Origin: an uncultured Gammaproteobacteria bacterium
Lineage (GTDB): Bacteria; Patescibacteriota; Microgenomatia; UBA10105; UBA927
Direction of reading: 5' to 3'
NCBI GenBank assembly: GCA_964527425.1
Contig: CAZGOA010000002.1
Span: 73,346 to 137,345, forward strand
Length of the DNA: 64,000 bases
This document shows positions 13,016-55,516 of the stretch, piece after piece; position 1 is the first letter of the stretch; each line of letters begins with the position of its first letter. Under the pieces are notes generated by a model, which did not search any database, was not told the origin of the DNA, and saw nothing but the letters and a program-made list of their open reading frames with translations. The position numbers were made by a program, and so were the translations under genes.

Positions 13016-14188
13016 TTATAACTTAAAAGTCTTTAAAGAAGAAATTATCTGCTGGACTTCAGAATTATATGTGTCACTTTGCAAAGGAAATGAGATAAAC
13101 AGAATATAGTTTCCATCCGTATAGGTATATGTTTCAGCCATTGGTCCATAAGATGTTTGGTACGTCGTTTTTACAGCACTTCTGCCATTAAACGTAGCAT
13201 TTATAGACGACTTATTATCAGTATTAATTTCATCTTCAGATTTCCCTCCCATATCATTCAATACAATAACCAAACTGGGTGCAAAATCGTGTTCATGTTG
13301 CAAATCCACTCCACTAATTTCTGTTTGAACAGGAGTTGTTTTTGCAACTGAAGGGCCAAACGTTTTTCTTACTTTCCATGTTGTTGGATATGTAAATGTA
13401 AAAAATCCATCTGGATCTATATACGTTTGTTTTGGAATGGACGTTGGGATTGGAGTATTACTAGGATTTTGTGTAGGTGTGGGTATGTAATTGGTATAAG
13501 AAAGTGATTGTAACAAAGCATCAAACACATCTTTTTTGCTGATATCAGAAAGTATTATCACATCAGAGCCTTCTCCATAGGGAATATACGCTTTCCAGTA
13601 TGTACCTTTTCCTTGTCCTATACCTCCGATATTTTCAAACTGAACTGTAGCTTGTTTACCTCCAATCTGTAGTGTATGTACTTGAGAAACAGTAATTTCA
13701 GATGGGTTTTCCGGGCTAGCTACAGAAGTTCTATTAGGACTCATTAACCCAACAATTCTATTAATATAAATTTCTGAAATATTTCCATCAAAACCACAAT
13801 CAAGTTCTTTCTCTAAAGGTATTGGGAACCCACTGGAAAATTTATCATTGATTGACTCACCAGCAAAAATCTGATTACTTTCTTTACAACTAAAATAATC
13901 CCAATTGGTTGGTATAGAAAATTTCCAGTAATTGTAGGTAATAGTCTGCATCCCTTCTGTATTCACTGTTGTTTCATTCTCCGTATTTTCAATCATCATT
14001 TCATCTTTATGAATTCGATTTTTGCTATAAAGCACATAAAAACTAATACTTGAAAGAGCAATAAAGAAACAAATAAGAATCACAAATAAATATAATGTTT
14101 GAGGTTTATCAACTGCTTGAACTTGCTTTGATGACGGATCAATCTGTTCAGGTTGCTGAGGAAATACGGGTTTTAAAGGTTCATCCAT
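13016..14188 (-). CDS. Hypothetical membrane-anchored extracytoplasmic protein
   Basis: 390 aa with a single N-terminal TM (LYLFVILICFFIALSSISFYVLY) and a Pro/Thr-rich segment. No catalytic motif. Confidence 0.45.
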   Translation of the reverse strand: MDEPLKPVFPQQPEQIDPSSKQVQAVDKPQTLYLFVILICFFIALSSISFYVLYSKNRIHKDEMMIENTENETTVNTEGMQTITYNYWKFSIPTNWDYFSCKESNQIFAGESINDKFSSGFPIPLEKELDCGFDGNISEIYINRIVGLMSPNRTSVASPENPSEITVSQVHTLQIGGKQATVQFENIGGIGQGKGTYWKAYIPYGEGSDVIILSDISKKDVFDALLQSLSYTNYIPTPTQNPSNTPIPTSIPKQTYIDPDGFFTFTYPTTWKVRKTFGPSVAKTTPVQTEISGVDLQHEHDFAPSLVIVLNDMGGKSEDEINTDNKSSINATFNGRSAVKTTYQTSYGPMAETYTYTDGNYILFISFPLQSDTYNSEVQQIISSLKTFKL

Positions 14189-14197
14189 AGATCCAGT

Positions 14198-15955
14198 CTA
14201 GACCTCTACAATCACAGGAACAATGAGTGGGTATCTACCAGTTTCTTTTTCCATCATTTTTGCTAAATTCTCACTGACTACTTTACGTACATATTGCCAG
14301 TCCAAAATACGTCCTTTTTTCAACTTTAATGACTGCATTGTTACCTGTTTAATTTTTTGCATAAGTTCGCCTGATTCCTTCGCATACACAAATCCACGAG
14401 TAATAATATCTGGTTCTGCCGTTACCCTTCCTGTGGCCTCCTCAACAGGAACTACTACTACCACAATTCCCTCTGTTGCAATTTGCTTTCTGTCTCGCAA
14501 CACAACAGTCCCTACATCTCCAATACCTAATCCATCAATCATCACATTCTCAAGACTTACTGAAGAAATAACTTTGGGTCTTTCTCCCTCTTTAAATTCT
14601 ATAATCTGACCTTCTTCAGGAATCAATACATCCTTTTTCCGGTACCCTAAGTCCTCAGCAAGTCGTCTATACTGCATCATATGCTTGTAATTCCCACCTA
14701 TTGGCCATATATATTTGGGTCCAATCGTAGATAATAAAAGCATCAAATCTCCCTGACTCCCATGTCCTGAGACATGCAAATCTTCCATAATATCTGAATA
14801 TGCAACTCGAGCACCTTTTCTATAAATTTGTTCAATAAGCTGTTCAATATTATGTTCATTCCCTGGTATTGGATCAGCTGAAAAAATAACAGTATCTCCA
14901 TCGATAATTTTTACATACCGATGCGCATCGTTAGCAATTCTTGATAATGCGCTATCTGGTTGTCCTTGAGCACCTGCTGCAATTAAAAACTGTTTGTTTG
15001 CAGGAAGTCGTTTTAAATCCTCAGGTCTGATCATGTATTCACGAGGAATGTTCATGTAACCAATATTCACTGCTTCTTCAGTATTCTTATCAATACTTCT
15101 CCCAAAAAGTGCTATTTGTCTACCATGTTTAACAGCAATATCAATAGCAAGTTGAACTCTAGAGAGATTACTTGATTGCGTTGTAAAGAATATTTTTCCA
15201 TGAGATTGTGATAATTCTTTTTCTAGAGTTTCACCAATTACCTGTTCTGATACTGTAAAACCTCGACGTTCACTTCCTAAGCAATCAGTAAGCATACACA
15301 ATACATTCCGTTTCCCCAGCGCTGTAATTTTATCCAGTTCAGATATTTTTCCATCTAAGGGAGTAAAATCAAATTTAAAATCACTACCGTGATACAAAAT
15401 ACCTATAGGTGTTTCAATAATAATATTTGATGTATCTGGAATAGAATGTGTCATTCGTACAAATGATAAACGAAAAGGACCTATCTCAATCTGTTCATCA
15501 AACGAAACACTCTGAACTCGCGAGGAAATTTTAGCTTCCTTTAACTTAATATTTGCTAATGCGGCAGTTAACTTAGTACCCCACATGCTTGGAGCGCCTA
15601 ATTTTTCATATAAATATGGTATTCCTCCAATATGATCATCATGACCATGAGTAAATACTAACCCTCGTATGTACTGCAATTTATCCTGCAGGTAGGTTAC
15701 ATCCGGGATAACTAAATCAACTCCAAACATTTCTGGAGTAGGAAATCCTATACCACAATCCACAATTAAAATATCTTGTAATATGCCATCAATAAGATAT
15801 TCATATACGTACATATTTTTAGTTACATTTCCAGCTCCTCCAATAGGAAAGAGTCGTACACTATCTTTTCCAATAGAACTACTTTTACCTACATGAATAG
15901 TAGATGATGGTTTGTTTACCCCCGTTGAGGCTATGTGTTTGTGAGCTTTAAACAT
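14198..15955 (-). CDS. rnj: Ribonuclease J (metallo-beta-lactamase / beta-CASP RNase)
   Basis: HxHxDH motif (THGHDDHIGG), a beta-CASP region and an RNase J-like length of 585 aa. There is a ~30 aa N-terminal extension. Confidence 0.85.
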   Translation of the reverse strand: MFKAHKHIASTGVNKPSSTIHVGKSSSIGKDSVRLFPIGGAGNVTKNMYVYEYLIDGILQDILIVDCGIGFPTPEMFGVDLVIPDVTYLQDKLQYIRGLVFTHGHDDHIGGIPYLYEKLGAPSMWGTKLTAALANIKLKEAKISSRVQSVSFDEQIEIGPFRLSFVRMTHSIPDTSNIIIETPIGILYHGSDFKFDFTPLDGKISELDKITALGKRNVLCMLTDCLGSERRGFTVSEQVIGETLEKELSQSHGKIFFTTQSSNLSRVQLAIDIAVKHGRQIALFGRSIDKNTEEAVNIGYMNIPREYMIRPEDLKRLPANKQFLIAAGAQGQPDSALSRIANDAHRYVKIIDGDTVIFSADPIPGNEHNIEQLIEQIYRKGARVAYSDIMEDLHVSGHGSQGDLMLLLSTIGPKYIWPIGGNYKHMMQYRRLAEDLGYRKKDVLIPEEGQIIEFKEGERPKVISSVSLENVMIDGLGIGDVGTVVLRDRKQIATEGIVVVVVPVEEATGRVTAEPDIITRGFVYAKESGELMQKIKQVTMQSLKLKKGRILDWQYVRKVVSENLAKMMEKETGRYPLIVPVIVEV

Positions 15956-15957
15956 AC

Positions 15958-17061
15958 TTAATACACTTCGATAAAATCCTTAATATTTTCATTCGTAATG
16001 TGAAACGTGTTTCCTTTTCCTTCGACAATCAACCGAGCCACTTTTCTGCATAAACTATTCATGGTCCGCTCTAAACTACGAATTCCTGCGTCATACCCTA
16101 AAGGACGAACAAGTTTAGGCCAGATAGATTCATCAATTGTTAAATTTTCCTGACTTAGTCCCGATTCCTTCATCAAATTAGGTAAAACATATTGCTTAGC
16201 AATTGTGATTTTTTCCTCGTCAGTATATGAAGGCATTTGTATCGGTTCAAGTCTATCTAAGACTGCTGTTGCTATATGAGTTGTATTGTTTGCAGTTGCA
16301 ATAAATAATACTTCAGACAAATCAAATGGAAAATCTACATAATGATCTCTAAAAGCAGCATTTTGTTCTGGATCTAATAACTCTACTAATACACCCATAA
16401 TGTCTGCTCTTGTCTGTTCGGCTACTCTATCAATTTCATCAAGCAGTATTACTGGATTTTTTGTGCCTGCAAATCGTAACCCTTTCATGATGAGTCCCAT
16501 TTCTGCATCAGGAGTTACACGCGCTTGCCCCCGCAAATCCAATGCATCACTCAATCCTCCAAAAGGTATGCGAACAAATCGCCTTCCCATTGCTTCTGCA
16601 ATAGATTTAGCCAATGTTGTTTTTCCAGTACCAACTAACCCTACTAAACACAAAATAGGAGCTCGTCTGGCTAACATCGCATGACTTAATTTTGTATCAT
16701 CAACCACAGCCCCACCCTGTATTTCAGAATTACTTTTCCAACGGTCCAGATTTAATTTTAAAACAGAAAGATATTCTAAAATTCTATCTTTTACAGACTG
16801 GAGTCCATAATGATGCTTTTCAAAAATTTCTTTTGCGTGAGCTAAATCAAGTTGATCAGTTGTACGAATATTCCAGGGAAGATTAACAACTGAATCGATA
16901 TAGCGCAAAATCATCTCAATATGAACACGTGCAGTAATATCATGTTCAAGTCTCTCAATCTCTTCAATCTGACTTAATACTCTTCCCTCCATTTCTTGAG
17001 GAAGCTGAACTTTGGAAATTTGTTGTTTAAGACCTGCTAACTGATCGGTTAAATGAGACAT
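15958..17061 (-). CDS. Lon-family AAA+ ATPase module without a protease domain
   Basis: The pre-AAA Lon helical segment is present (LPWNIRTTDQLDLAHAKEIFEKHHYGLQSVKDRILEYLSV). Walker A is GLVGTGKTT and Walker B is ILLDEIDR. The ORF stops where the Lon protease domain would begin, and RNase J follows immediately. Confidence 0.65.
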   Translation of the reverse strand: MSHLTDQLAGLKQQISKVQLPQEMEGRVLSQIEEIERLEHDITARVHIEMILRYIDSVVNLPWNIRTTDQLDLAHAKEIFEKHHYGLQSVKDRILEYLSVLKLNLDRWKSNSEIQGGAVVDDTKLSHAMLARRAPILCLVGLVGTGKTTLAKSIAEAMGRRFVRIPFGGLSDALDLRGQARVTPDAEMGLIMKGLRFAGTKNPVILLDEIDRVAEQTRADIMGVLVELLDPEQNAAFRDHYVDFPFDLSEVLFIATANNTTHIATAVLDRLEPIQMPSYTDEEKITIAKQYVLPNLMKESGLSQENLTIDESIWPKLVRPLGYDAGIRSLERTMNSLCRKVARLIVEGKGNTFHITNENIKDFIEVY

Positions 17062-17179
17062 ACAAATCTGTAAGAACTATACGTTGATATATAATAAGTA
17101 TACCTCCTTACAGAAGAACAAAAAACTATACTTCTTTCTTACATTGAGTAGTTTATAATATTCAGGTTTCAGAAATAAT

Positions 17180-19369
17180 TTAAAACCTTTTTCTACCGCC
17201 ACCAAATCCACCTCGACGTGGTCTACGATCTCCACCTCCCATGTTCATCCTCTCTCGAGGTTCACGAGGTTTATTCGCATCTTCGCCAAAAAGCATAGAG
17301 AGATTAATACGTTTTTGGTCATCGATTTCTGCTACTCTGACTTTTACTTTTTGTCCTAGTTTTACAACTTCTTCAGGATTATTTACGTATTCAGTCGACA
17401 TTTGTGATACATGAACCATTCCTTCTTTACCAGGTAAAATTTCCACAAAAGCTCCAAAATTCATAATACGCTTTACTTCACCTTCAAATTCTTCTCCAAC
17501 TTTCACTTCACGTGTTAATCCTGTTACCCAATCGACTGCTTTTTGAACAGATTCTTCATCAGTTCCTGCAATGGTGACTGATCCGTCATCTTCAACATCT
17601 ACACTTGCTCCAGTTGAGGCAATAATGTTTCGAATCATACGTCCACCAGGACCAATAACTTCTCCAATTTTTTCAGTTGGGACTTTAACCACAACTACTT
17701 TGGGAGCGTATTGAGAAAGTTTAGTTCTTGATGCTGGAATTGCTGCCAACATAACCTCCAAAATTTTCATCTTGGCTTCTTTTGCTCGCTTAAGGGTATT
17801 TTCAACTATCTCATCACTTAATCCATCAATCTTTATATCAAGTTGGATAGCAGTAATACCATTTTTTGTTCCTGCAACTTTAAAATCCATATCTCCGGCA
17901 AAATCTTCAATTCCCATGATATCTGTTAATAATTCATATTTATCACCATCAGTCATAAGACCAATAGAAATTCCGGCAACAGGTTCTTTAATTGGAACAC
18001 CTGCGTCCATAAGTGCCAAAGTAGATCCACAGGTAGATGCCATCGATGTTGATCCATTACTAGACATGATTTCAGATACCAATCTCATGGTGTACGGAAA
18101 TTCTTCTAGTGATGGAATAACAGCCAGTAACGCTCGCTCTGCTAATGCCCCATGACCAATTTCCCGACGAGAAGATGTGCCTATTCTTCCGGTTTCTCCA
18201 ACAGAATAAGGAGGCATATTATAGTGATGAATATATCGTTTTGATTCTTCACCAGCCGGTCCTTCTATTAATTGTTCCAGAGCAGGTGTGCCAAGTGTTG
18301 CAACTGTAAGTGCTTGGGTTTGACCACGTTGAAATATTGCACTTCCATGAGTTCTGGGTAAAATACCAACTTCTGCATGGAGCGAACGGATTTCATTCAA
18401 ACCTCGTCCATCCACACGTTTTTTGTGTTCAATAATATCTTTACGTACTTTCTTTTTAAACAGTTTATCAAGGGTTGCTTCAATATCTTTGACACTATAT
18501 TCATTTGCATAAGCCTCAGCTATCGTTTTCGCCAATACTGTAACATCATCTCCTGCACTTTCTTTTTGTACATTCTTCATAAATACTGCTTCCATATCTT
18601 TATAATAATCAGCAGTAATCTTCGTTTTTAATTCTTCTAAAGCATGTTCATCAGGTACAGGAAGTTTTGTTTTTCCTACATCTGCTACCAACTCATTAAT
18701 AAGATCAATTATTTTTGCGTTCTCTTGTTTAGCACTTAATACAGCATTGTAAACAACATCTTCAGCTGTTTCACAAAAACCGCCTTCTAACATAACCACT
18801 TTTTCTTTATTGGAAGAAATAACAAAATCAAATTCACTGATTCCCTGTTCTGCCACAGTAGGATTTACTAAATACATATCTGGTTCATCATCTTTTCCTT
18901 GTATATACCCCATACGAACACCGCCGATTGGACCGTTCCAAGGAACTGGTGATATGGCAAGAGCGGCACTTGTTGCAACAAGTCCTAATATATCTGGATC
19001 ATTTTCACCATCCACAGATAAAACTGTAATAATTACTTGAACATCTCTTTTAAACGATTTTGGGAAGAGTGGACGAATTGATCTATCAATAACTCTTCCA
19101 GCTAAAACAGCGTCATCCGTAGGTCTACCTTCACGCTTAACCCAACGTGATCCTTTAATACGACCACCTGCATATAATCGTTCCACATATTCAACACTCA
19201 GCGGAAAATAATCCAGTGAAGATTCTTTACCGGAAACCGTAACGGTTGCTAACACCATGGTATCTCCATAACGTGCCATAACAGCAGCAGATGCTTGTTG
19301 GGCAACACGTCCAACTTCTAGGGTTAACGTTTTTCCACCAATTTCGGTGGATTTACTAACAATATTCAT
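17180..19369 (-). CDS. pnp: Polynucleotide phosphorylase
   Basis: Two RNase PH domains, then KH and S1 domains. The N-terminus MNIVSKSTEIGGKTLTLEVGRVAQQA aligns with the PNPase start. The track ORF (to 19426) is extended only by an alternative GTG start. The C-terminus has an RGG-rich tail. Confidence 0.9.
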   Translation of the reverse strand: MNIVSKSTEIGGKTLTLEVGRVAQQASAAVMARYGDTMVLATVTVSGKESSLDYFPLSVEYVERLYAGGRIKGSRWVKREGRPTDDAVLAGRVIDRSIRPLFPKSFKRDVQVIITVLSVDGENDPDILGLVATSAALAISPVPWNGPIGGVRMGYIQGKDDEPDMYLVNPTVAEQGISEFDFVISSNKEKVVMLEGGFCETAEDVVYNAVLSAKQENAKIIDLINELVADVGKTKLPVPDEHALEELKTKITADYYKDMEAVFMKNVQKESAGDDVTVLAKTIAEAYANEYSVKDIEATLDKLFKKKVRKDIIEHKKRVDGRGLNEIRSLHAEVGILPRTHGSAIFQRGQTQALTVATLGTPALEQLIEGPAGEESKRYIHHYNMPPYSVGETGRIGTSSRREIGHGALAERALLAVIPSLEEFPYTMRLVSEIMSSNGSTSMASTCGSTLALMDAGVPIKEPVAGISIGLMTDGDKYELLTDIMGIEDFAGDMDFKVAGTKNGITAIQLDIKIDGLSDEIVENTLKRAKEAKMKILEVMLAAIPASRTKLSQYAPKVVVVKVPTEKIGEVIGPGGRMIRNIIASTGASVDVEDDGSVTIAGTDEESVQKAVDWVTGLTREVKVGEEFEGEVKRIMNFGAFVEILPGKEGMVHVSQMSTEYVNNPEEVVKLGQKVKVRVAEIDDQKRINLSMLFGEDANKPREPRERMNMGGGDRRPRRGGFGGGRKRF

Positions 19370-19457
19370 GAAGATATATGAAGAATAGATACATTGAAGA
19401 CAGATGATGGAAGACACAATCTTCACACATCCAACTTCAATGTTACCTTATATCTTC
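19370..19457 (-). promoter_or_regulatory. pnp 5' leader with nested inverted repeats (candidate processing or autoregulatory stem-loop)
   Basis: GAAGATATA (19370-78) pairs with TATATCTTC (19449-57). ACATTGAAG (19391-99) pairs with CTTCAATGT (19435-43). The innermost hairpin is GAAGAcacaaTCTTC. The outer stem abuts the pnp start codon. Confidence 0.4.
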
Positions 19458-19489: not shown

Positions 19490-19882
19490 TTATTTGCCTA
19501 ATCCTAATTTTTTTGTTACTTCAGCGTATCGCTTTGAATCCTGTTTCTCAAGATAGTTTAATAATCGACGTCTTTTACTAACAATTCCAAGTAATCCACG
19601 TCTAGAATGATTATCAGAATGGTTGGTTTTTAAATGAAGTATAAGTTTTTCTATACGATTCGTTAAAAGAGCAACTTGAACTTCTGGACTACCAGTATCA
19701 CCATCTTTTACAGCATATTGTTCAATAATTGTCTTTTTCTCTGCGCTGGGTTCAGGTGTAATTTCTTCTTTTTCTGCTTTTTTAGTTACTTTTTTTGCTT
19801 TTTTAGGAGCTTCGGTTGATGCAACTGATTCTTCTTTTGCAACTTTTTTTGTTTTTTCTTCTGTTTGTTTTGCTTTTGCCAT
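19490..19882 (-). CDS. rpsO: Ribosomal protein uS15 with a ~45 aa Lys/Ala/Glu-rich N-terminal extension
   Basis: The C-terminal 85 aa match the S15 core (…[27 protein letters not shown]…). The N-terminal extension is KAKK/KKV-rich and low in complexity. Confidence 0.85.
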
Positions 19883-20147: not shown

Positions 20148-21038
20148 TTATCCTAAATTAGAGCTTTTGAAGATCTTTGGCTTTAACCAATCTGGAGGAG
20201 TTTCTTGAGCTTGATTACTTGGTATAGTGACTGGATTAGCTTCAATTGATTCAGTAATGCCATGTTCCTCTACGGGAATTTCTTCACTAACTGGCATTGA
20301 TACAGTTCTTTGAAACTTTTTTCCTCCTAATCTGGAAACTTCTGCAGCAATCTCAAACGCTTTAGCACTTACATTTGCTGAAGTGAAATTATTTGTTGCC
20401 GAAAAAAGAGCATTTAATACATTTGTAGCCATATCTTGAGTTAACGTGACACCTAAACTCTTAATAACTTCAAAAATAAGCTCAACAGTCGAAGAAACAT
20501 GTGGATCAACGATATTTACTTGTCCATAATTACTATTGTTTGGATGTCTATCTATATTAATGACAGGCTTAGAAGCAAATAGATCTTTATTTGTTTCATA
20601 TACCTTCTTAAGACCACCTAAATGTATAGTATCTACTACAATAATTGCATCTACGTTAGCCCCAGCCTGAGAAAAATGAACTTTATCCTGTGTAAAAGAA
20701 TCAAAACCATCACGTGGTTCAATCACAAGATTAAATGTATTTCCTTCAATATTATAACTAACCTTTTCTATTGAACCCTCGGTGTAATCCAATGAAATCA
20801 CAAAATGCTTTTTGCCTACTTCATTTACAATCTTATTTGCACCAACAAAATGAGAATGTTCAACAGTAATAGGATCAGGAAGTGCAACAGTTACCTTTTT
20901 ACCTAAACTTTGAAGCGCTAAATAGATAGTAAGTAAACTCCCTATACTATCAGCAGTCGGGCGTTCGTGTGACACAATCAATAACGATTGTGCTTGTTCA
21001 ATAATTTTACGTGCAGATTCAAGATGTGTCTGATTCAT
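20148..21038 (-). CDS. nrnA: DHH/DHHA1 phosphoesterase (NrnA-like nanoRNase / pAp phosphatase)
   Basis: DHH-family N-terminal motifs (…LIVSHERPTADSIGS…). It occupies the conserved slot between infB and rpsO. Confidence 0.6.
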   Translation of the reverse strand: MNQTHLESARKIIEQAQSLLIVSHERPTADSIGSLLTIYLALQSLGKKVTVALPDPITVEHSHFVGANKIVNEVGKKHFVISLDYTEGSIEKVSYNIEGNTFNLVIEPRDGFDSFTQDKVHFSQAGANVDAIIVVDTIHLGGLKKVYETNKDLFASKPVINIDRHPNNSNYGQVNIVDPHVSSTVELIFEVIKSLGVTLTQDMATNVLNALFSATNNFTSANVSAKAFEIAAEVSRLGGKKFQRTVSMPVSEEIPVEEHGITESIEANPVTIPSNQAQETPPDWLKPKIFKSSNLG

Positions 21039-27202: not shown

Positions 27203-27931
27203 TTACTTCCACCGTGAACCTAATTCTCCAATTAATGATCCTACATATCGAACTACTGGTATTACATATGGATAATTAAGTCGCGATGGACCGACTACTC
27301 CTACAGCTCCTGAAAGCGAAGGGGTAGAAAATTTATAATATACAACACCACATTGATTCAAGAAACTCCGCGATCCAAAAGATTCCCCGAGTAATACATC
27401 AAAAGGATCAGGACGTGTAGAAAACAACTCCCACCAAAAATCTGATTGATCTAAGGTAGAAAGTAAATGATGTGTTAGTTCATAATCATAAAATTCAGGC
27501 ATGTCTAAAATATTGGCTGCTCCAGAGTAGTACAAATCTCCATTCTCGGTCGCCGTAAACGCTAACGTTTTTGTTTTCTGAGCCAACGTTTTCGTTGTTT
27601 CTCGTAAAAATTTATCCATTTCTTGCCGATAATCCCATACTTTTTCTTTTACTGAAACTTCATCTGCAACAGATAGATTCTTTGGCTTCATCATGTGCTC
27701 TACATAATATTGAAGTGCCTGAGGTGTTGGAGAGCGTCCAGCAGATGCATGTGGTTGAGCTAGCATTTTCATCTGTGTTAACCGAACCATTTCATTTCGT
27801 ATAGTAGCTGGCGAAACACCCAAATTATATTTTTTCTCCAACGTCTCTGATCCGACAGGTTCTGCTGTCGCAATGTATTCTTCTATAATTGCTTTTAAAA
27901 TACTGATTTGTCGTTCCGTTAGTTCTTCCAT
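27203..27931 (-). CDS. hrcA: Heat-inducible transcription repressor HrcA (short)
   Basis: N-terminal winged HTH (LTERQISILKAIIEEYIATAEPVGSETLEKKYNLGVSPATIRNEM). It is the first gene of the hrcA-grpE-dnaK-dnaJ operon, with a CIRCE element upstream. Confidence 0.75.
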   Translation of the reverse strand: MEELTERQISILKAIIEEYIATAEPVGSETLEKKYNLGVSPATIRNEMVRLTQMKMLAQPHASAGRSPTPQALQYYVEHMMKPKNLSVADEVSVKEKVWDYRQEMDKFLRETTKTLAQKTKTLAFTATENGDLYYSGAANILDMPEFYDYELTHHLLSTLDQSDFWWELFSTRPDPFDVLLGESFGSRSFLNQCGVVYYKFSTPSLSGAVGVVGPSRLNYPYVIPVVRYVGSLIGELGSRWK

Positions 27932-27952: not shown

Positions 27953-27979
27953 TTAGCAGTACTATATAAAGAGTGCTAA
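27953..27979. promoter_or_regulatory. CIRCE operator (HrcA binding site)
   Basis: The sequence TTAGCAGTA-N9-GAGTGCTAA fits the CIRCE consensus TTAGCACTC-N9-GAGTGCTAA with two mismatches in the left arm. It lies 20-50 nt upstream of hrcA. Confidence 0.7.
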
Positions 27980-33780: not shown

Positions 33781-33995
33781 ATGTAGAAGAAAGTGACCGA
33801 GATTTATTACTCGTTTCAATTTTTACATTTTTAACTGTTTTATCGTGGGTGTTCTTTGAGCTGGTAAAGACTATAAAAACAACTACAGTAAAGGCTCCAG
33901 TTCAGGAAATCATTAAACCGTTGAACCCGACTATAGATACTGCAATACTTGATACATTAAGAGAAAGAAAATCATATTTTCCAGTCAATGAATAA
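33777..33995 (+). CDS. Small membrane protein in the surface operon
   Basis: 72 aa with one TM (LLVSIFTFLTVLSWVFF). It is translationally coupled on both sides. Confidence 0.3.
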   Translation: MNVEESDRDLLLVSIFTFLTVLSWVFFELVKTIKTTTVKAPVQEIIKPLNPTIDTAILDTLRERKSYFPVNE

Positions 33996-35286
33996 ACCAA
34001 TAAGAATCCCTACTATTTTCGCACTCCTCTTCGTAGGAGTTCTTCTCTTAACAATGACATGGATTACTAAAATAATTTCACAGCCAACACAAGCAGACGT
34101 AGGTAAACTTCCTAAAGATATTCAAGTAACAAATGTGTCAGACACATCGTTCACAGTACTCTGGATTACAGAAAAACCAACACGTGGAGTAATCCAAGTA
34201 ACTCCTCCAGATGGTCAAGCATTAACGTTTTATGATGATCATGCAGTGCAATCCCAAAATCAAGAATTTACGACTCATAGCGTAACTGTACGGGGCATGC
34301 AAGCACTCACACAATACACCATCACGTTTCTAAATACTCCAGACAAAACACTTACTATAACGACAGGACCAACGCTTTCACTTAATTCAAATCAATTAGG
34401 TCCTCTCCATGGCTCAGTAAAAAATTCAGATGGAACACCTGCAGTAGGCTCTTTAGTCTATCTTGCTTTAGAAGGAAGCCAAATACTTTCAACGACAGTA
34501 AAGGATTCAGGAAGTTTTCTCATCCCTCTTAATTTATTACGAACAGAAGATACTACCGCATATCTACCTGTTAAAGAAGAACCACTACCTGTTACTCTCA
34601 CGATTATATCTCCAACAGGAGAAAAAACCATAGCAACAACAAATACAGATAACGACTCTCCAGTTCCCGATATAACTTTAGGCCAACCAAACGACTTTAC
34701 ACAATCATCTGTAAAACCAACTCCTGTACTTGCTGAAAAACAATCATCGTTTCAATCCGTACTCGGTACAATAAATACAACAGCAGTAGCTTCTTCTAGT
34801 GTAACTCTGGCAACACCGATTCAAGGAGGAATAGTACGGAGTGAATATCCGTTTATTACTGGCAAAGGTATTCCAGATGAAATAGTAACAATTATTATAG
34901 GAAGCAAAAGTCCTACTGTTGATACTGTACGAGTTAAAAAAGATGGAACCTGGCAATTTACACCAAAAAAAGGCATACCAGCAGGAAACCAAAGTGTTAC
35001 TATCTCTTCGTTTGATGAAAATAAAAATCCAATTTCTATAACGCACCTGTTTCAAATTATGAAAAGTGGTACTCAAGTACTCGGTGATGCAACTCCGTCC
35101 GCAAGTCCAACAATAATTCTTCCAACCCCAATAAGCACAATTAGCGCAACACCAATCCCCACCTTGCTAATAGAACCTACTCCTACAACCGAAATTCCCA
35201 CAACAGCAACGACAGTACCTACCTATATCTTATTAGCAGCAGGAATATCATTAAGTATTATCGGATTACTTGTTTTTATACTGTAA
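33988..35286 (+). CDS. Surface protein. It has an N-terminal signal anchor, an FN3-like domain, a bacterial Ig-like domain and a C-terminal TM anchor.
   Basis: FN3-like segment: VTNVSDTSFTVLWITEKPTRGVIQV…YTITF. Ig-like segment: IVTIIIGSKSPTVDTVRVKKDGTWQFTPKK. C-terminus: …TEIPTTATTVPTYILLAAGISLSIIGLLVFIL. Confidence 0.5.
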   Translation: MNKPIRIPTIFALLFVGVLLLTMTWITKIISQPTQADVGKLPKDIQVTNVSDTSFTVLWITEKPTRGVIQVTPPDGQALTFYDDHAVQSQNQEFTTHSVTVRGMQALTQYTITFLNTPDKTLTITTGPTLSLNSNQLGPLHGSVKNSDGTPAVGSLVYLALEGSQILSTTVKDSGSFLIPLNLLRTEDTTAYLPVKEEPLPVTLTIISPTGEKTIATTNTDNDSPVPDITLGQPNDFTQSSVKPTPVLAEKQSSFQSVLGTINTTAVASSSVTLATPIQGGIVRSEYPFITGKGIPDEIVTIIIGSKSPTVDTVRVKKDGTWQFTPKKGIPAGNQSVTISSFDENKNPISITHLFQIMKSGTQVLGDATPSASPTIILPTPISTISATPIPTLLIEPTPTTEIPTTATTVPTYILLAAGISLSIIGLLVFIL

Positions 35287-35377
35287 GCTATCGGTATACT
35301 TGACGATTGAATACAGCTCTAGTAGCGTAGATAGTAGCTAACACCAGATAGTCTATTATCTCTATTTTTATATTTAC

Positions 35378-36850
35378 ATGGATTTATACGATCAAGCACA
35401 AAAAAATAATGAACCACAATCATCAGATCTGCCTGATCTCTCCTCACTCATGTCACCACCACAAGATAGTCAACCAGTTCAAACCCAACCTCCTCCACCA
35501 CAAATTGAACCTATTTCTGCATTGGATGTTCCCGTAACCCCGCCAATTTCTGATCAACCGACAGTAGATACACCACCAGTACAATCCGCAACGCCTGACA
35601 TTTCGCCTTTACCAACATCTGTTCCACCTATTGCTAATCCAGAAACACCCATGCCCACTCCACAAGAAGTAAAACCCACAGATCTTGCTTCAGAAGCTGT
35701 AATATCGAATTCACCTGATGCCAATACTTTACCTACACCAGATTCCTCCAAGCCAGATACTGTGGCAAACACACCAGATACCCAAACATTTATGCACATG
35801 AGTGATATACCCCGTGACACAGTTCCCTCTTCTCCTGTAACCGAAACAGTCCCATCTCCAGCACCACTGGATAATTCACCACCTAATACTACCCCTCCAG
35901 TACCACCAAATGCAGCGACACCATCCAAAAAGTTCACAATGGGAAGAGGAATTCTCTTTGCAGTACTTGCTCTAGCGATACTTACCCTTCCTGTCATTGG
36001 ATTTTTTGTAACACGACCCAATTCTCAAACAGATACGCGTACCCAAGCTGCAATAAGCAATTGTGCGATCCCTGGCGATCCAGATTGTGATATAACATCA
36101 CCAACTAACACTCCTCCAAGTAGCACATCTAATTCTGCCACAACCCCCGCTACGCAAACACAAACGGTACAATCGCAAGCCGGCTGTAGTTCTTTAGGGA
36201 ATCCATGTGAAAACAACGGCTGCTGTACTGGACTAGTCTGTCAGGGAAATACCGGCAATCGTGTATGTCAACAGCCAGCAACAACTCCTGATCAATGGTG
36301 TGGGGGAACACCCGGTTCTTGTGGCAGACTAATAGCTTTCCATTGCAATAGTGATTTCCCAAGTGGAACACCCGAATCAGGTTGTTTTGATAATCCAATT
36401 TATATCCAAAATAATGATGCAGCAGGCTGGGCTCAGGCACGTGCACATGTTGCCGGCTGTGGTCAAATAGACGTCGTTTGTAAAAGTGGCCCTAAAGAAA
36501 ACCAATTATGTGGAGATTTCGAAATTTTCAAAGATAATTGTGGTCCTGGCTCACAACCGACACCTATTCCAATATCTCAATGTAGAAATTTAAAAATTTA
36601 TCGTGATGGTATAGTTGTAAAAACTAAAGATTACAATACTCTTCGACCACAACAACAAATTCAGTTCGCAGTTGTATCAAACCAAGAGGCAGCACGAGCT
36701 CGATTTTACATTAACGGTAAAGATCCAGTCATATCGACAGAAAAAAATGAAAATGGTGAATTTTTTATTAACTGGGAAATACCAGAAGTAGGTAGTCAGA
36801 GGACATTTACAGTACAAGCAGAAGTTCGAATAAATGGAGTTTGGCAATAA
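35378..36850 (+). CDS. Bitopic surface protein of an unrecognised family, paralogous to 37885-38391 at both the N- and C-terminal modules
   Basis: N-terminal DLPDLSSLMSPPQD motif and a Pro-rich cytoplasmic region. A TM at about residue 195. Cys-rich extracytoplasmic region (GCSSLGNPCENNGCCTGLVCQGN…). C-terminal beta domain ending …RINGVWQ. Confidence 0.5.
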   Translation: MDLYDQAQKNNEPQSSDLPDLSSLMSPPQDSQPVQTQPPPPQIEPISALDVPVTPPISDQPTVDTPPVQSATPDISPLPTSVPPIANPETPMPTPQEVKPTDLASEAVISNSPDANTLPTPDSSKPDTVANTPDTQTFMHMSDIPRDTVPSSPVTETVPSPAPLDNSPPNTTPPVPPNAATPSKKFTMGRGILFAVLALAILTLPVIGFFVTRPNSQTDTRTQAAISNCAIPGDPDCDITSPTNTPPSSTSNSATTPATQTQTVQSQAGCSSLGNPCENNGCCTGLVCQGNTGNRVCQQPATTPDQWCGGTPGSCGRLIAFHCNSDFPSGTPESGCFDNPIYIQNNDAAGWAQARAHVAGCGQIDVVCKSGPKENQLCGDFEIFKDNCGPGSQPTPIPISQCRNLKIYRDGIVVKTKDYNTLRPQQQIQFAVVSNQEAARARFYINGKDPVISTEKNENGEFFINWEIPEVGSQRTFTVQAEVRINGVWQ

Positions 36851-37880
36851 TATGAAAAACATTTCAAAATTCGCTGTGACTCTTGGCTTATTAATTACTT
36901 CTCTATTAATTGCAACGACGGCAGTATTAGTAATTCAATTAAGAAACCGTCAGGCAATAACAGATTTACCACCTGAGGCCGCAGTTGATGCGTGTAAAAT
37001 AGTATTTACGATTGATCCGGTGTGCAAAACTGACTTTACCCTCCTTCCTCCTGAGTCACCAGAAAATACACCAACACCTTCCGTTTTACCAACCGTAACA
37101 ATTTCACCACAATGCACAAGTGCGTGTGATCCTGCAGGAAGAAACCAGCAGTGTCCAACAAATCACAGCTGCGCACCAGCAAACCATCCTAATGCTAATA
37201 CCTGCATATTAACTGCATGTGTACAAAATCCTGATCTTTGTAACAGCACAAGCTGCTCACTATTACCAACACCGCCTTCAACTAATACACCCACCCCACA
37301 AGCTACTAACACTCCAACAGTACGTGCAACAAATACACCGATAAATACACCGACAAATACACAAATTCCTCCAACAAACACTATTGCATCCACTAGTACA
37401 CCAAATCCAACCGCAACACCAAATCCTTTATGCGGATCATCATGCGATCCTGATGGGTCAAGCAATCAATGTCCATCGAATCATACCTGTGCACCAGATA
37501 GTCATCCAAATGCCAATACCTGTATTCTCACTTCGTGTGTACAAAATCCAAGCCTATGCTCAAATAACAGCTGCACAGTCCTCCCAACACCAACAGCTGT
37601 ACGTACGTCAACACCGACTCAACCAATTGCATACTCACCGTCATCTACGCCCATACCAGGCTCATGTAATGCTAACTGTTCGACAGATAGTAATTGTGCA
37701 AACAACTTAGTATGCTCAGGTGGTACGTGCCGCAACCCAGAATGCACTGAGCAAGCTAATTGTTCATGCTCGATACAGCCAACGCCAGAAATTCCTGTAA
37801 CAGGCACAGGAACTACTCTAGTAGGTATTGGTATAATTGTTGGAGGAATACTACTCTTACTGTTAGGATTAGCATTTTAA
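36834..37880 (+). CDS. Cysteine-rich repeat surface protein with a C-terminal EIPVTG sorting signal
   Basis: N-terminal signal anchor. Two ~55 aa 8-Cys repeats (CxxxCDPxGxxxQCPxNHxCAPxxHPNANTCILTxCVQNPxLC) and a third degenerate Cys-rich module. The C-terminus reads PEIPVTGTGTTLVGIGIIVGGILLLLLGLAF. Confidence 0.5.
   Translation: MEFGNNMKNISKFAVTLGLLITSLLIATTAVLVIQLRNRQAITDLPPEAAVDACKIVFTIDPVCKTDFTLLPPESPENTPTPSVLPTVTISPQCTSACDPAGRNQQCPTNHSCAPANHPNANTCILTACVQNPDLCNSTSCSLLPTPPSTNTPTPQATNTPTVRATNTPINTPTNTQIPPTNTIASTSTPNPTATPNPLCGSSCDPDGSSNQCPSNHTCAPDSHPNANTCILTSCVQNPSLCSNNSCTVLPTPTAVRTSTPTQPIAYSPSSTPIPGSCNANCSTDSNCANNLVCSGGTCRNPECTEQANCSCSIQPTPEIPVTGTGTTLVGIGIIVGGILLLLLGLAF
37114..37598 (+). 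repeat. Intragenic duplicated ~165-nt module encoding the 8-Cys domain, two copies at about 37114-37278 and 37431-37598
   Basis: The two nucleotide segments are roughly 75% identical. Compare tgcacaagtgcgtgtgatcctgcaggaag… with tgcggatcatcatgcgatcctgatgggtc…, and …aatacctgcatattaactgcatgtgtacaaaatcc… with …aatacctgtattctcacttcgtgtgtacaaaatcc…. Confidence 0.7.
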
Positions 37881-37884
37881 CACT

Positions 37885-38391
37885 ATGAATACACAGCCAA
37901 ACAACCAAGATTTTCCAGACCTATCAATACTTATGAATACACAACCGGTTCATGATCCGACGCCACCACCAAGTCATGCACAAAAAAAGCGCTCACCAAT
38001 ACTAGGGTTGTCTATCCTGCTACTCATCTTATTTTTTGGTGCAACTAGTGCTATTCTCATCTGGCAAACTCAATCAAGAGAAACTATTGCACGAGTTGAA
38101 ACACAAGCCGAAGAACCCACTGATACAGTGCCAAAATCCTGTAAACGTCTGACCATTTATAAAGATGGAGTCGCTGTAACTGACTATAATACACTTAGAG
38201 CTGGTGACACTGTAACCTTAGCTACTCCCATTGGTTCTGCAGTTAAAGCGAGATTTACTATTAATAAAACAGAGGTAGAATCGACAAAAGTTACCTTTAA
38301 TAATGAGTTCATCGTTGACTATACATTCCCCTTGGATATGCGTGCCGTTCGTATCAAGGTAGAGCGAAAAATAGATGGCATCTGGCAATAA
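37885..38391 (+). CDS. Small bitopic surface protein, paralogue of 35378-36850
   Basis: N-terminal DFPDLSILMNTQP motif. TM (ILGLSILLLILFFGATSAILIW). C-terminal domain CKRLTIYKDGVAVTDYNTLRAGD…KIDGIWQ, alignable with the C-terminus of the 490 aa protein. Confidence 0.5.
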   Translation: MNTQPNNQDFPDLSILMNTQPVHDPTPPPSHAQKKRSPILGLSILLLILFFGATSAILIWQTQSRETIARVETQAEEPTDTVPKSCKRLTIYKDGVAVTDYNTLRAGDTVTLATPIGSAVKARFTINKTEVESTKVTFNNEFIVDYTFPLDMRAVRIKVERKIDGIWQ

Positions 38392-52631: not shown

Positions 52632-54113
52632 ATGCGAAGAATTGTTACAAGATATCCAGAAAAAACAAGACGATTAATAGAAATTCTTATTCCTTTAACT
52701 TCATGGATTATTATTACAATGCCATTTTGGCTTTCTTTTTGGAATCCTGTTGCTATGGGATACATATTAATCACTTTCAACGTTTATTGGTTTTATAAAT
52801 CATTAACACTCGCGATTAGTGCCATTAAGTCCTTTATAACTTTACAGGCTCATATTAAAGTTGATTGGTTAGCTCAAATCAAACATCACCCCGATTTTAA
52901 TAAAATACATCACATAATTATTATTCCCGAATATAAAGAACCAATTCACATACTAAAAAGAACAATAGAAAATTTATTAACTACAGATTTTCCTAAAGAA
53001 AAAATCACTTTAGTATTGGCAACAGAAAGCAAAGATACTGAAGCAACAGAAACTGGAAATGTTCTTTCTCATGTATTCAAAGATAAGGTCGGTCATTTTC
53101 TTATTACTACCCACACACTATTACCCGGTGAAGTAGCAGGAAAATCATCTAATATGGCAGCCGCAGCAGAAATCATAGAAAAAAAACTGGAAGAATGGAA
53201 TATTCCGATCGAATGGACTACAGTCACATCTTGTGACGCCGATGCACTAATTCATCCAAAATATTTATCTTGTGTTACACAGAAATTTCTCACAAATAAA
53301 GACAAATTCGAAACATTTTATCAAGGTGCCATAATGTTTTATTCAAACATTTGGCGGATACCTCTCCCTAATCGTTTTCTAAATATTCTCAATAGTATCT
53401 GGAATTTAGCATCACTATCACAACCTTCAAGACTCATTAATTTTTCAACCTATACTCTCCCTTTTAAAACAGCTAAAGATGCTGGATATTGGGGTAAAGA
53501 TGTTATACCAGAAGATTACCATATGTTTTTTAGAGTATATTTTAATAAGGGTGAGAAAGTTAAAACTCAGCCTATTTTTTTACCAATACTTGTTGATGCT
53601 GCCGAAAGCAAGGGATTTTTTAGAACTATGGTAAATCAGTACGAACAATCTAAACGTTGGGCATGGGGAGTTTCCGATATACCTTTTGTAGTGAAAGGTA
53701 TGATTATACATTCAAACATTGCTTTGATAGATAGAGTTATTCGCTTGTTAAAATTACTTGAACATCATATTTTCTGGCCAGCTAACTGGTTTTTACTAAC
53801 TATAGGAGGAATCGTGCCGGGATTGGTAAATCCAAACTTTGCAAGAACAAGTTTCGGATTTCAACTTGCCCAGTTATCTTCAGGAATATTAACACTTTCT
53901 ACAATTGTACTTTTGGTTGTCTTTTATATAGATTGGAAATTAAAACCACCAAAACCTGAACATATACGGAATTGGACGCTACCGTTTTTATATTTACAGT
54001 GGTTTACTCTTCCTATTATTTCATTTTTCCTTGCAGCTCTCCCTGGGTTGGATGCACATACTCGTTTGCTTTTAGGTAAACGACTAGAGTATCGAGTAAC
54101 AGAAAAGGTATAA
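52632..54113 (+). CDS. Membrane-integrated family-2 glycosyltransferase (cellulose-synthase-like topology)
   Basis: N- and C-terminal TM bundles flank a GT-A domain (IIIPEYKEP…LVLATESKD…GKSSNMAAAAE…TSCDADALIHP). Confidence 0.6.
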   Translation: MRRIVTRYPEKTRRLIEILIPLTSWIIITMPFWLSFWNPVAMGYILITFNVYWFYKSLTLAISAIKSFITLQAHIKVDWLAQIKHHPDFNKIHHIIIIPEYKEPIHILKRTIENLLTTDFPKEKITLVLATESKDTEATETGNVLSHVFKDKVGHFLITTHTLLPGEVAGKSSNMAAAAEIIEKKLEEWNIPIEWTTVTSCDADALIHPKYLSCVTQKFLTNKDKFETFYQGAIMFYSNIWRIPLPNRFLNILNSIWNLASLSQPSRLINFSTYTLPFKTAKDAGYWGKDVIPEDYHMFFRVYFNKGEKVKTQPIFLPILVDAAESKGFFRTMVNQYEQSKRWAWGVSDIPFVVKGMIIHSNIALIDRVIRLLKLLEHHIFWPANWFLLTIGGIVPGLVNPNFARTSFGFQLAQLSSGILTLSTIVLLVVFYIDWKLKPPKPEHIRNWTLPFLYLQWFTLPIISFFLAALPGLDAHTRLLLGKRLEYRVTEKV

Positions 54114-54142
54114 TACAATTGAATCAGTATTAATTTTCAACT

Positions 54143-55516
54143 ATGTTAGATTTTATTATTAATCACTCTCCAATTTATTACTTAGTACAAAGCTTATGGA
54201 GAGATGAAGCATTTTCAGTGTTAATTGCAGAGCGTCCGATTGCTTCATTCCTTGGCTCCTTAAATTTTGAGCCACCAATTTATTATGTTCTCCTTCATAT
54301 TTGGGTAAGAATATTCGGAACCAGTGAAATTTCAGTACGTTCACTTTCGTTTGTGGGATTTGTTTTAGCTACAATTGTTGTAATTTTTTGGGCTGAACAG
54401 TTATTTAAAAAACATTGGTTGTCATGGATGACACCGGTGCTTTTTTTCTTTAATCCCATGTTACTGTATTACGCCTTTGAGGTAAGAGCCTATGGGTGGT
54501 TTATGTTTTTTTCAACACTTTCTCTGTTTGCCTATACATCAAAAAAATATAAGTTATTGTTTATTGCAAATGTTTTAGCCTTTTACACCCACTCCTATGC
54601 TATTTTTATTCCTTTTGTGCAATTAGCCCATTATCTTATGATAAATGTAAAAACAAAACACTTTTTTACATTTAAACAACTCTATACTAGTCCAATTATT
54701 AGAATGCTGATTGGATATTCGCTAGTCATCGCTCCATGGACCTTTGTTATTGCTCAAGAAGCTTTAAAAGGTAGACCAACATGGTATTATCCAGTAGATC
54801 TTCAGTTAGTATTTGCAGTATTAGGAAATATGTTTGTAGGGTACGATGGCACACCGGGAGGAATGTGGAAATATACCTCAATTCTATCAGTATTGTTACT
54901 TATACTTTTTTTAATAGGAATCAGGCAAAAACAATATCGATTTAATACTTCTTATTTACTACTTGCTGTTCTATTACCACTTTGTATAGTCATTGGCGTA
55001 TCATTCCACAAACCCTTATTTGTAAATAGATATTTAATTTATGTCACAATCGCACAAGTTATACTTATTGCATATAGTATTTATCAAATGAACTCCAAAA
55101 TAATACAAAAGGGAATTCTGGTGGGTTTAATTATGTTATACCTTTTTGTAAATACTCAGTTCCCATTAAAAAAAGCCAAGTTAGATATCCGATCAACTTT
55201 ACAAATAGCAAATTCTTTACGAGGACCCAAAGACCTTTTATATGTTTCTAGTCCTCTCATTTTTTTCGAGGCAATCTACTATACAAAAGATCGTCAACAT
55301 GTATATCTATACAATCCAGAGAATAATACCTTCCCCTGGTATATAGGTGAAAGTGCGTTTGATGTAAAACAGATGACCAATGTGTATCCTGAATACCCCT
55401 CTAGAGCAGTTATTGTTGGAGAAGATAACTCTATAACAATTGCATATCGTACTACTCAAAACCCAATACCGATCACTGAAACTATACAGTCATCTCCTTC
55501 GGATTCAACACAATAA
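54143..55516 (+). CDS. GT-C fold glycosyltransferase (ArnT/PMT, GT39/GT83-like). It is polyprenyl-phosphate-sugar dependent.
   Basis: About 11 TM helices. The first extracytoplasmic loop carries an RDEAF (DE) motif, as in ArnT/PMT. Confidence 0.5.
   Translation: MLDFIINHSPIYYLVQSLWRDEAFSVLIAERPIASFLGSLNFEPPIYYVLLHIWVRIFGTSEISVRSLSFVGFVLATIVVIFWAEQLFKKHWLSWMTPVLFFFNPMLLYYAFEVRAYGWFMFFSTLSLFAYTSKKYKLLFIANVLAFYTHSYAIFIPFVQLAHYLMINVKTKHFFTFKQLYTSPIIRMLIGYSLVIAPWTFVIAQEALKGRPTWYYPVDLQLVFAVLGNMFVGYDGTPGGMWKYTSILSVLLLILFLIGIRQKQYRFNTSYLLLAVLLPLCIVIGVSFHKPLFVNRYLIYVTIAQVILIAYSIYQMNSKIIQKGILVGLIMLYLFVNTQFPLKKAKLDIRSTLQIANSLRGPKDLLYVSSPLIFFEAIYYTKDRQHVYLYNPENNTFPWYIGESAFDVKQMTNVYPEYPSRAVIVGEDNSITIAYRTTQNPIPITETIQSSPSDSTQ

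Follow-up and report, generated by a model that had tools for sequence, protein, structure and literature searches.

A predicted stand-alone AAA+ ATPase derived from LonA, without N domain or protease, in Patescibacteria

In LonC and other Lon-like proteases the protease is kept and the AAA-like module is inactive, and among the members of the HCLR clade the unfoldases HslU and ClpX are encoded apart from their peptidases. A chaperone activity that is independent of proteolysis has also been reported for mitochondrial Lon (Pim1). According to the published classification, all Lons contain both an ATPase and a protease domain and are divided into subfamilies A, B, C and BA (PMC9569914). In the Lon of Yersinia, Tyr398 and Ile399 form a pincer that grips the translocating polypeptide, and Arg395 and Arg396 brace this pincer against Glu458 (PMC7239648). 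The present work concerns an open reading frame (ORF) located at 15958..17061, on the minus strand, of a 64,000-nucleotide stretch of contig CAZGOA010000002.1 (the window), to which the working name gene X was given. Judging from its sequence, the product of gene X is a stand-alone AAA+ ATPase that descended from LonA and lost both the LAN domain and the S16 Ser-Lys protease.

Gene X starts with ATG and encodes 367 amino acids, from MSHLTDQLAG... to ...FHITNENIKDFIEVY*, with the stop codon at 15958-15960. The protein is made up of a helical NTD-3H region, the AAA+ alpha/beta subdomain and the Lon lid, and has neither the LAN N domain nor the S16 protease. The Pfam search identified AAA (amino acids 137-274) and Lon_lid (298-349), and it detected neither Lon_C nor LON_substr_bdg (PF02190). 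The NCBIfam equivalog of lon, TIGR00763 (“endopeptidase La”), aligns only through its positions 253-569 of 795, and the scores lie below the curated thresholds, both for this model (324.3 bits, cut-off 608) and for NF008053 (256.5 bits, cut-off 891). The best solved relatives found with phmmer in the PDB are LonA proteases, headed by that of B. subtilis (3m6a, E=2e-77) and followed by the E. coli/Yersinia and Meiothermus-type entries and then by human LONP1, and the alignment with the PDB Lons reaches no further than the final helix of the AAA+ lid. The idea that an N-terminal part or an upstream start had been missed was considered and rejected, since the start is already the earliest one available behind a stop codon and the end of the PNPase gene is only 118 nt away, so that the ORF cannot be extended upstream. 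The elements of the protein are arranged as follows, from the N-terminus to the C-terminus.

16720..17061, minus strand: helical region, amino acids 1-114, which matches Lon residues ~246-350 (positions in the NCBIfam and PDB Lons)
16663..16719, minus strand: family-specific insertion before Walker A, amino acids 115-133, where the canonical Lons are gapped in the alignment
16615..16641, minus strand: Walker A, GLVGTGKTT (K147), 100% conserved in 120 close homologues
16495..16533, minus strand: remodelled pore loop 1, RGQARVTPDAEMG, with T183 at the place of Lon Tyr398
16429..16452, minus strand: Walker B, VILLDEID (D208, E209), invariant in the family alignments
16393..16428, minus strand: pore loop 2 region, RVAEQTRADIMG, R-[GA]-D-I-M-G in the family and R-G-D-P-S-S in Lon
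16303..16353, minus strand: pre-sensor-1 beta-hairpin, FRDHYVDFPFDLSEVLF, conserved with Lon and a hallmark of the HCLR clade
16246..16299, minus strand: sensor-1 N258 (ATAN) and arginine finger R270 (LDRLE), invariant in the X family and in canonical Lon
16066..16089, minus strand: sensor-2 region, AGIRSLER (R328), preceded by the family-specific RPLGYD
15961..15987, minus strand: C-terminus, NIKDFIEVY-COOH, which ends at the AAA/protease linker

The first 114 residues correspond to the end of a long helix, a three-helix bundle (NTD-3H) and the N-linker helices. The NTD-3H bundle, which in Lon caps the pore, takes up the first ~60 of them, and Y54 and P62/W63 are conserved with Lon in the alignment. 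An AlphaFold2 model of the monomer, built from a 58-sequence family alignment, has a mean predicted local distance difference test score (pLDDT) of 86.4 and a predicted TM-score of 0.81; it places helices at residues 2-18, 22-38, 42-59, 73-83 and 88-114, and residues 115-133 are predicted to be disordered (pLDDT <50). When this model was compared with the PDB using Foldseek, the top 50 matches were exclusively LonA or LONP1 chains. The best global match is a construct of the AAA+ region of E. coli Lon (6n2i), with TM-scores of 0.83 and 0.90 (normalized by query and target, respectively) and a root-mean-square deviation of 2.4 Å, and for this reason gene X can be regarded as nearly co-extensive with the AAA+ module that crystallographers excise from Lon.

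The residues required for ATP hydrolysis were compared between family members and 61 full-length canonical Lons. K147, D208/E209, N258, R270 and R328 are 100% conserved in the alignments of the X family. Around them there are family-specific changes: Walker A reads GLVGTGKTT in the family and GPPGVGKTS in canonical Lon, with an invariant lysine, and the sensor-2 helix begins with RPLGYD in the family versus xYTRE in Lon. The segment FxDHYxDxPFDLSxVLF is common to the X family and to Lon and carries the hairpin that characterizes the HCLR clade; in the model, short strands (residues 238-246) precede the sensor-1 strand (252-257). By its residues, the product of gene X would be a catalytically competent ATPase.

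The pore loops are a different matter. Pore loop 1 has the consensus RGQSRxxPDAE[PI]G in the X family (R-G-Q-S-R-V-R-P-D-A-E-I/P-G in the close clade), versus RGHRRTY[VI]GAMPG in Lon; in gene X itself RGQARVTPD takes the place of RGHRRTY[IV]G, and an acidic P-D-A-E stretch stands in place of V/I-G-A-M. All of the 61 canonical Lons (100%) have the tyrosine of this loop, and none of the 120 close homologues does: at the tip these have valine (100%) and, at the tyrosine position, arginine (95%), gene X having threonine. In more distant members the position is occupied by F, Y, H, N, I, S or E, and D185 and E187 are near-invariant. From the set of residues that braces the pincer in Lon, gene X retains only the second arginine and an aspartate at the position of Glu458, and its Y54/Y241/D243 network corresponds to Y294/Y456/E458 of Lon. 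Since the ATPase residues are kept and the pincer is replaced, the motor appears to be intact and the canonical grip lost. The two residues at the tip were also compared across loci (VR, VH, VT, AF, LF or VY in members located between pnp and rnj; TS, IS, GE or SE in members linked to groES), and no clean rule relating tip to context emerged.

These results agree with the original prediction in that a Lon-family AAA+ gene ends at the boundary between the AAA and protease domains and keeps the Lon helical region together with a complete Walker A/B ATPase. The description of a complete ATPase holds for all the catalytic residues, but the protein departs from Lon in pore loop 1, where the canonical tyrosine is missing. 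The minus-strand location, the absence of the LAN domain and the rebuilt pore loop 1 had gone unremarked.

In comparison with the LonA proteins of E. coli, Y. pestis, B. subtilis, M. taiwanensis and human mitochondria (LONP1), X shares 35-44% identity over NTD-3H and AAA+, the fold (TM-scores up to 0.83-0.90), Walker A and B, sensors 1 and 2, the arginine finger, the pre-sensor-1 hairpin and the Lon lid. It differs from them in having neither LAN domain nor S16 Ser-Lys protease, in the replacement of Tyr398/Ile399 and Arg395 of pore loop 1 along with the acidic PDAE, in a changed pore loop 2 and in a disordered insert of 19-25 amino acids before Walker A. Because it fails on protease domain, N domain, curated score and pore-loop tyrosine, X should not be annotated as an “ATP-dependent Lon protease”. 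It also falls outside subfamilies A, B, C and BA, given that in the published classification all of these keep both domains (PMC9569914). LonC is the mirror image of X: both are Lon derivatives that gave up one of the two Lon activities, but LonC has an active protease and a dead ATPase, whereas X has an apparently active ATPase and no protease. X resembles HslU and ClpX in being stand-alone, with a single AAA+ module (~360-440 amino acids), and in the possible C-terminal docking tail of some members; unlike them, it has no IGF loop, no HslU I-domain, no partner peptidase gene nearby and no conserved pore-loop aromatic, and its similarity to ClpX is marginal (E about 1e-3). The chaperone activity of Lon would be the natural remnant in a protease-less ring such as X, although that activity resides in full-length Lon, with an N domain and canonical pore loops, which X lacks or has altered.

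The missing halves were searched for by tblastn with the S16 and LAN domains of four canonical Lons. With E<1e-3 as the threshold, neither the 64-kb window nor the surroundings of X in 21 loci (up to ±10 kb each way, ~360 kb from related genomes in all) gave a match. The Pfam annotation of the window, which covers 43 of the 50 ORFs of at least 150 amino acids in addition to rpsO (whose identity rests on synteny), contains no ClpP, HslV or S16 peptidase. For the window and these loci, the two negatives exclude a split gene with an adjacent protease partner.

The truncation is shared by a whole family. When 5.8 billion proteins were searched, the matches listed included at least 120 clusters of 359-380 amino acids with 100% query coverage and 73-98% identity to gene X, and Microgenomates, Gottesmanbacteria and Patescibacteria are among the source names. 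In a second library, whose clusters are drawn at 50% identity and where the close relatives among the matches listed form a single cluster (P0121), ~20 further protease-less clusters were found (40-57% identity, also put at 40-68%; 346-703 amino acids), and the canonical full-length Lons rank after them, at ~40-44% identity. Every distant member scanned has AAA and Lon_lid only, and every member stops at the same AAA/protease boundary, an end-point shared over more than 140 clusters and down to 40% identity. In a neighbour-joining tree of the AAA+ region, 29 members of the X family are split from 45 canonical Lons in all of 100 bootstrap replicates. The members with names come from Levybacteria (L015), Shapirobacteria (L026), Gottesmanbacteria and Dojkabacteria/WS6 (P0142). 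As far as sequence can tell, X is thus a monophyletic, protease-less family of the Candidate Phyla Radiation (CPR)/Patescibacteria, distributed in Microgenomates lineages and Dojkabacteria.

Gene X differs from its closest orthologue (L005, 98% amino acid identity) by 103 synonymous changes as against 13 non-synonymous ones, which amounts to 0.63 substitutions per synonymous site (dS) and 0.015 per non-synonymous site (dN), with a dN/dS of 0.024. Conservation, dN/dS and the tree point to an ancient truncation of single origin that has been maintained by selection. The possibility that gene X is the stump of a decayed lon gene, either a pseudogene or a recent truncation, is suggested by a Lon-like sequence without two of the Lon domains. 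It is refuted by the conservation and the dN/dS value, by the intact frame, the invariant catalytic residues and the identical end-points in more than 140 clusters. Remnants would moreover have no room, and tblastn detected the missing domains neither in the window nor in the 21 X loci, so that this possibility is left with next to no probability. The original prediction had offered this stump as an alternative to a deliberate truncation, and it is the latter that stands: the orthologues, once checked, have the same truncated architecture of ~360-375 amino acids, the selection is purifying, and the window indeed holds no protease half. The proposal of a “stand-alone Lon-like unfoldase or regulator” is upheld as regards “stand-alone”; “unfoldase” is unproven.

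Other searches delimit the family further. A scan of contigs for relatives of X returned mostly canonical Lon among the matches listed, with at least ~11 family loci that could be used, and a scan of metagenomic DNA for the signature RG-x5-PDAEPG-x-I gave 33 loci, in which neither X nor any other query protein has a relative; the 12 regions that were inspected are G+C-rich chance matches. PADLOC assigned gene X to no defence family (the matches were weak, generic P-loop ones, the best being TRIP13 with 30.7 bits, and the context is housekeeping). There is no dedicated NCBIfam or Pfam model for the family; the Joint Genome Institute (JGI) names its genes “ATP-dependent Lon protease” and the Prokaryotic Genome Annotation Pipeline (PGAP) “AAA family ATPase”.

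Some members of the family (P0139/P0271, L128 2471..4582; P0127, L127 9121..10581; P0143; and P0148, L091) carry low-complexity N-terminal extensions of ~100-370 amino acids at the place where Lon has its N domain. They are Gln/Pro-rich in P0139/P0271 and Pro/Ser/Thr-rich in the others, no Pfam domain was detected in them, and they may be disordered recruitment or condensate modules. Five of the metagenome-assembled genomes that encode X (L011, L012, L013, L017 and L018) are titled “uncultured Gammaproteobacteria/Pseudomonadales bacterium” despite a CPR-type X in Microgenomates synteny, and the taxonomy in these record titles is probably mislabelled.

The genes that surround gene X in the window, all in the same orientation, are given below.

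14198..15955, minus strand: RNase J gene (rnj), with Pfam RNase_J_b_CASP, RNase_J_C, RMMBL and Lactamase_B
17062..17179, minus strand: pnp-X spacer of 118 nt, with the -10-like boxes TATAGT and TATTAT and no Shine-Dalgarno sequence near the ATG
17180..19426, minus strand: PNPase gene (pnp), 118 nt upstream of gene X and co-oriented with it
19490..19882, minus strand: rpsO, which precedes pnp
20148..21038, minus strand: DHH-family (NrnA/RecJ-like) gene, in the same co-oriented run as gene X

Three RNA or oligonucleotide nucleases (DHH, PNPase and RNase J) are thus encoded in ~7 kb around gene X. RNase J had been correctly named as the next gene, on the basis now of its beta-CASP, RNase_J_C and RMMBL domains, but the spacer between the stop of gene X and the ATG of rnj is 2 nt (15956-15957) and not the 3 nt stated earlier; with this spacing, the two genes are probably co-transcribed or translationally coupled. 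The pnp-X spacer is a putative, and probable, promoter of gene X. In a comparison of 17062..17110 of the window with the 45 nt upstream of X in 22 related loci, TANNNT occurs within positions -16..-4 relative to the ATG in 17 of the 23 (random 13-nt windows, 15%), and a Shine-Dalgarno sequence in none. The -10-like boxes and the lack of a Shine-Dalgarno sequence suggest a promoter that belongs to X, from which a leaderless, or near-leaderless, mRNA would run on into rnj. The Rfam search found no RNA family in the window.

The order (hrcA-grpE-dnaK-dnaJ-)nusA-infB-DHH-rpsO-pnp-X-rnj-ftsK, referred to here as type A, is found in the window, L001, L002, L005, L011, L013, L015, L019 and L127. It is partial in L026 (pnp-X, at a contig end) and L128 (X-rnj-ftsK), and looser in L012, L016 and L018. 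The order is still present where X is down to ~50% identity and RNase J to 43-45% (37-40% for the looser loci L016 and L018), with X-rnj spacers of 2 nt (window and L005), 1 nt (L002), -4 nt, that is, an overlap (L019), and 18 nt (L127). A terminal aromatic residue (Y or W) is kept in the X members of the pnp-X-rnj context, outside of which the C-terminal motif is not conserved. In L005 and L006, which are 98% identical relatives, pnp and X are separated by an extra ORF of 192 amino acids (9347..9925 in L005, 2206..2784 in L006) that has no Pfam family. The window does not have this ORF, and the difference looks like the recent insertion or deletion of a small gene.

In the loci of types B and C, X is either divergently adjacent to groES-groEL (L014, L017 and L092) or located 4-5 kb upstream of these genes (L007, from Dojkabacteria, and L093, where clpB then follows). 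The two type C loci, L007 and L093, share a conserved hypothetical gene of 193 amino acids (2104..2685 in L007, 11498..12079 in L093), convergent and right after X, then a PilM/FtsA-like gene and then a gene of ~640-690 amino acids, with a weak Baseplate_J match in L093 and no Pfam match in L007. L009, L020, L091 and L129 belong to neither arrangement.

The PNPase encoded next to gene X ends, after its S1 domain, in an Arg/Gly/Ser-rich and apparently disordered tail (17180..17300, minus strand; ...GGGDRRPRRGGFGGGRKRF), of which the last residues are GRKRF. A tail of the same type was found in all ten loci examined (the window, L001, L002, L005, L011, L012, L013, L015, L019 and L026, L012 being a looser type A locus), with 8-16 Arg+Lys in the last 45 amino acids. 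Six of the ten, the window among them, end in [KR]RF, and L013 ends in RRRTHY. Such a tail is unusual for a bacterial PNPase and is reminiscent of scaffold or condensate tails.

What this ATPase does can be approached by weighing several readings. There is a slight preference for the one in which X forms a hexamer like that of Lon and spends ATP on remodelling proteins that it does not degrade. The conserved residues, the arginine finger and the interface motifs indicate that X would assemble as such a hexamer and hydrolyse ATP; given that no peptidase is attached to it and that its pore loop is non-canonical, it would act as a non-proteolytic remodeller or chaperone, not as a translocase for degradation, and it would be transcribed from its own promoter together with rnj. 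The proteostasis flavour of the contexts (groES-groEL, clpB, and the hrcA-grpE-dnaK-dnaJ genes at the head of the co-oriented run in the window) also counts for it. Several observations weigh against this remodeller. The commonest context of X is pnp-X-rnj, which points to RNA decay rather than to chaperones. Some distant members keep an aromatic, F or Y, at the tip of the pore loop or beside it, so that threading may persist in part of the family. Regulation by HrcA through CIRCE (controlling inverted repeat of chaperone expression) was considered and discarded: a CIRCE-like inverted repeat (TTAGCAGTA-N9-GAGTGCTAA, 2 mismatches, 27953..27979) lies ~20 nt upstream of hrcA (27203..27931, minus strand) and another before groES in L007, but none was found before X or in the spacers between groES and X. 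Moreover, the literature search found no paper on a protease-less Lon in CPR or on such a family.

An alternative for Microgenomates, or a refinement of the first reading, possible but tentative, is that X serves the RNA-decay machinery as an accessory ATPase and remodels, assembles or regulates RNase J and/or PNPase; one possible route would be through its acidic pore loops, if these hold on to the disordered, Arg-rich tail of PNPase. The rpsO-pnp-X-rnj(-ftsK) order kept in the type A loci despite X being at ~50% identity, the very short X-rnj spacers in several lineages, the DHH/NrnA-like nuclease gene in the same run, the presence of that tail in ten of ten loci and the acidic character of X (isoelectric point 5.65), with its conserved PDAE loop, all speak for it. 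A precedent exists in Haloferax volcanii, where the AAA-ATPase Cdc48a is associated with the RecJ3/4-aRNase J nuclease complex (PMC10470531). The likeness lies in the company of RNase J and DHH nucleases (DHH, PNPase, X and RNase J in the window); Cdc48a, however, is an archaeal, classical double-ring protein of another AAA+ clade that depends on ubiquitin-like proteins, and the link of X is one of gene order alone. Furthermore, housekeeping gene order in small CPR genomes need not imply physical interaction, and in other lineages X is not beside pnp or rnj but near groES/groEL (L014, L017, L092, L007, L093) or elsewhere (L009, L091, L129). A more specific version, rather unlikely, would make X the ATPase subunit of a CPR-specific assembly similar to an RNA degradosome, in which the PDAE loops engage the PNPase tail, and perhaps that of RNase J too, and ATP controls the RNA-decay machinery in its assembly, turnover or activity. 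The neighbourhood and the loss of the protein-gripping tyrosine, with arginine at the loop tip in 95% of the close homologues, could also suit a ring that translocates RNA or DNA in the manner of RuvB, another HCLR member, and feeds the neighbouring RNases. That is highly improbable, considering that D185 and E187, the residues conserved in the pore loop, are acidic, that the protein is acidic overall, that no nucleic-acid-binding domain was detected in X and that gene X itself has Thr, not Arg, at the tip. The DNA-binding lysines of E. coli Lon, which lie in SKVKKD around residue 308, align with TTDQLD in X; they are not conserved, so that this route to nucleic acids is unsupported. Finally, X could be the unfoldase ring of a peptidase encoded elsewhere (S16, ClpP or HslV), as in ClpX and HslU. 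Its end exactly at the domain boundary, its intact ATPase site and the C-terminal Y/W in which the pnp-X-rnj members keep the linker aromatic, a possible docking tail, would fit, but this motif is confined to those members, the tyrosine on which threading depends is not conserved in the pore loop, the halves of split genes normally stay adjacent, and neither an S16 domain in the window or the 21 X loci nor a partner peptidase gene in the 64 kb was found, which makes such a split quite improbable.

The X family indicates that the Lon AAA+ ring can exist alone, with the motor kept and the substrate-gripping loop rewritten, and it offers a natural experiment on a Lon ring without protease, N domain or pore tyrosine. 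In the minimal genomes of CPR, genes that are retained are likely to matter, and the near-constant position of X, with PNPase on one side and RNase J on the other, suggests that AAA+ remodelling is linked to RNA decay in a way yet to be explored; if the degradosome-like assembly were real, a protease scaffold would have been repurposed for RNA metabolism. In practical terms, the annotation as “ATP-dependent Lon protease” is widespread and would wrongly credit these organisms with Lon proteolysis, and the PGAP name is safe but uninformative. What the data suggest is an uncharacterised family in which only the motor of a protease scaffold is left, and whose link to RNA decay is intriguing but unproven.

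Elsewhere in the window, ORFs of 168-493 amino acids without a confident Pfam family are located at 13016..14188 (minus strand) and, on the plus strand, within 33988..38391, 52632..55516 and 62173..63504. The one at 33988..35286 has sub-threshold fn3/Ig-like matches only, and the one just after rnj (13016..14188) has an N-terminal hydrophobic segment and Pro/Thr-rich linkers. By their sequences, these ORFs would be typical CPR dark-matter surface proteins.

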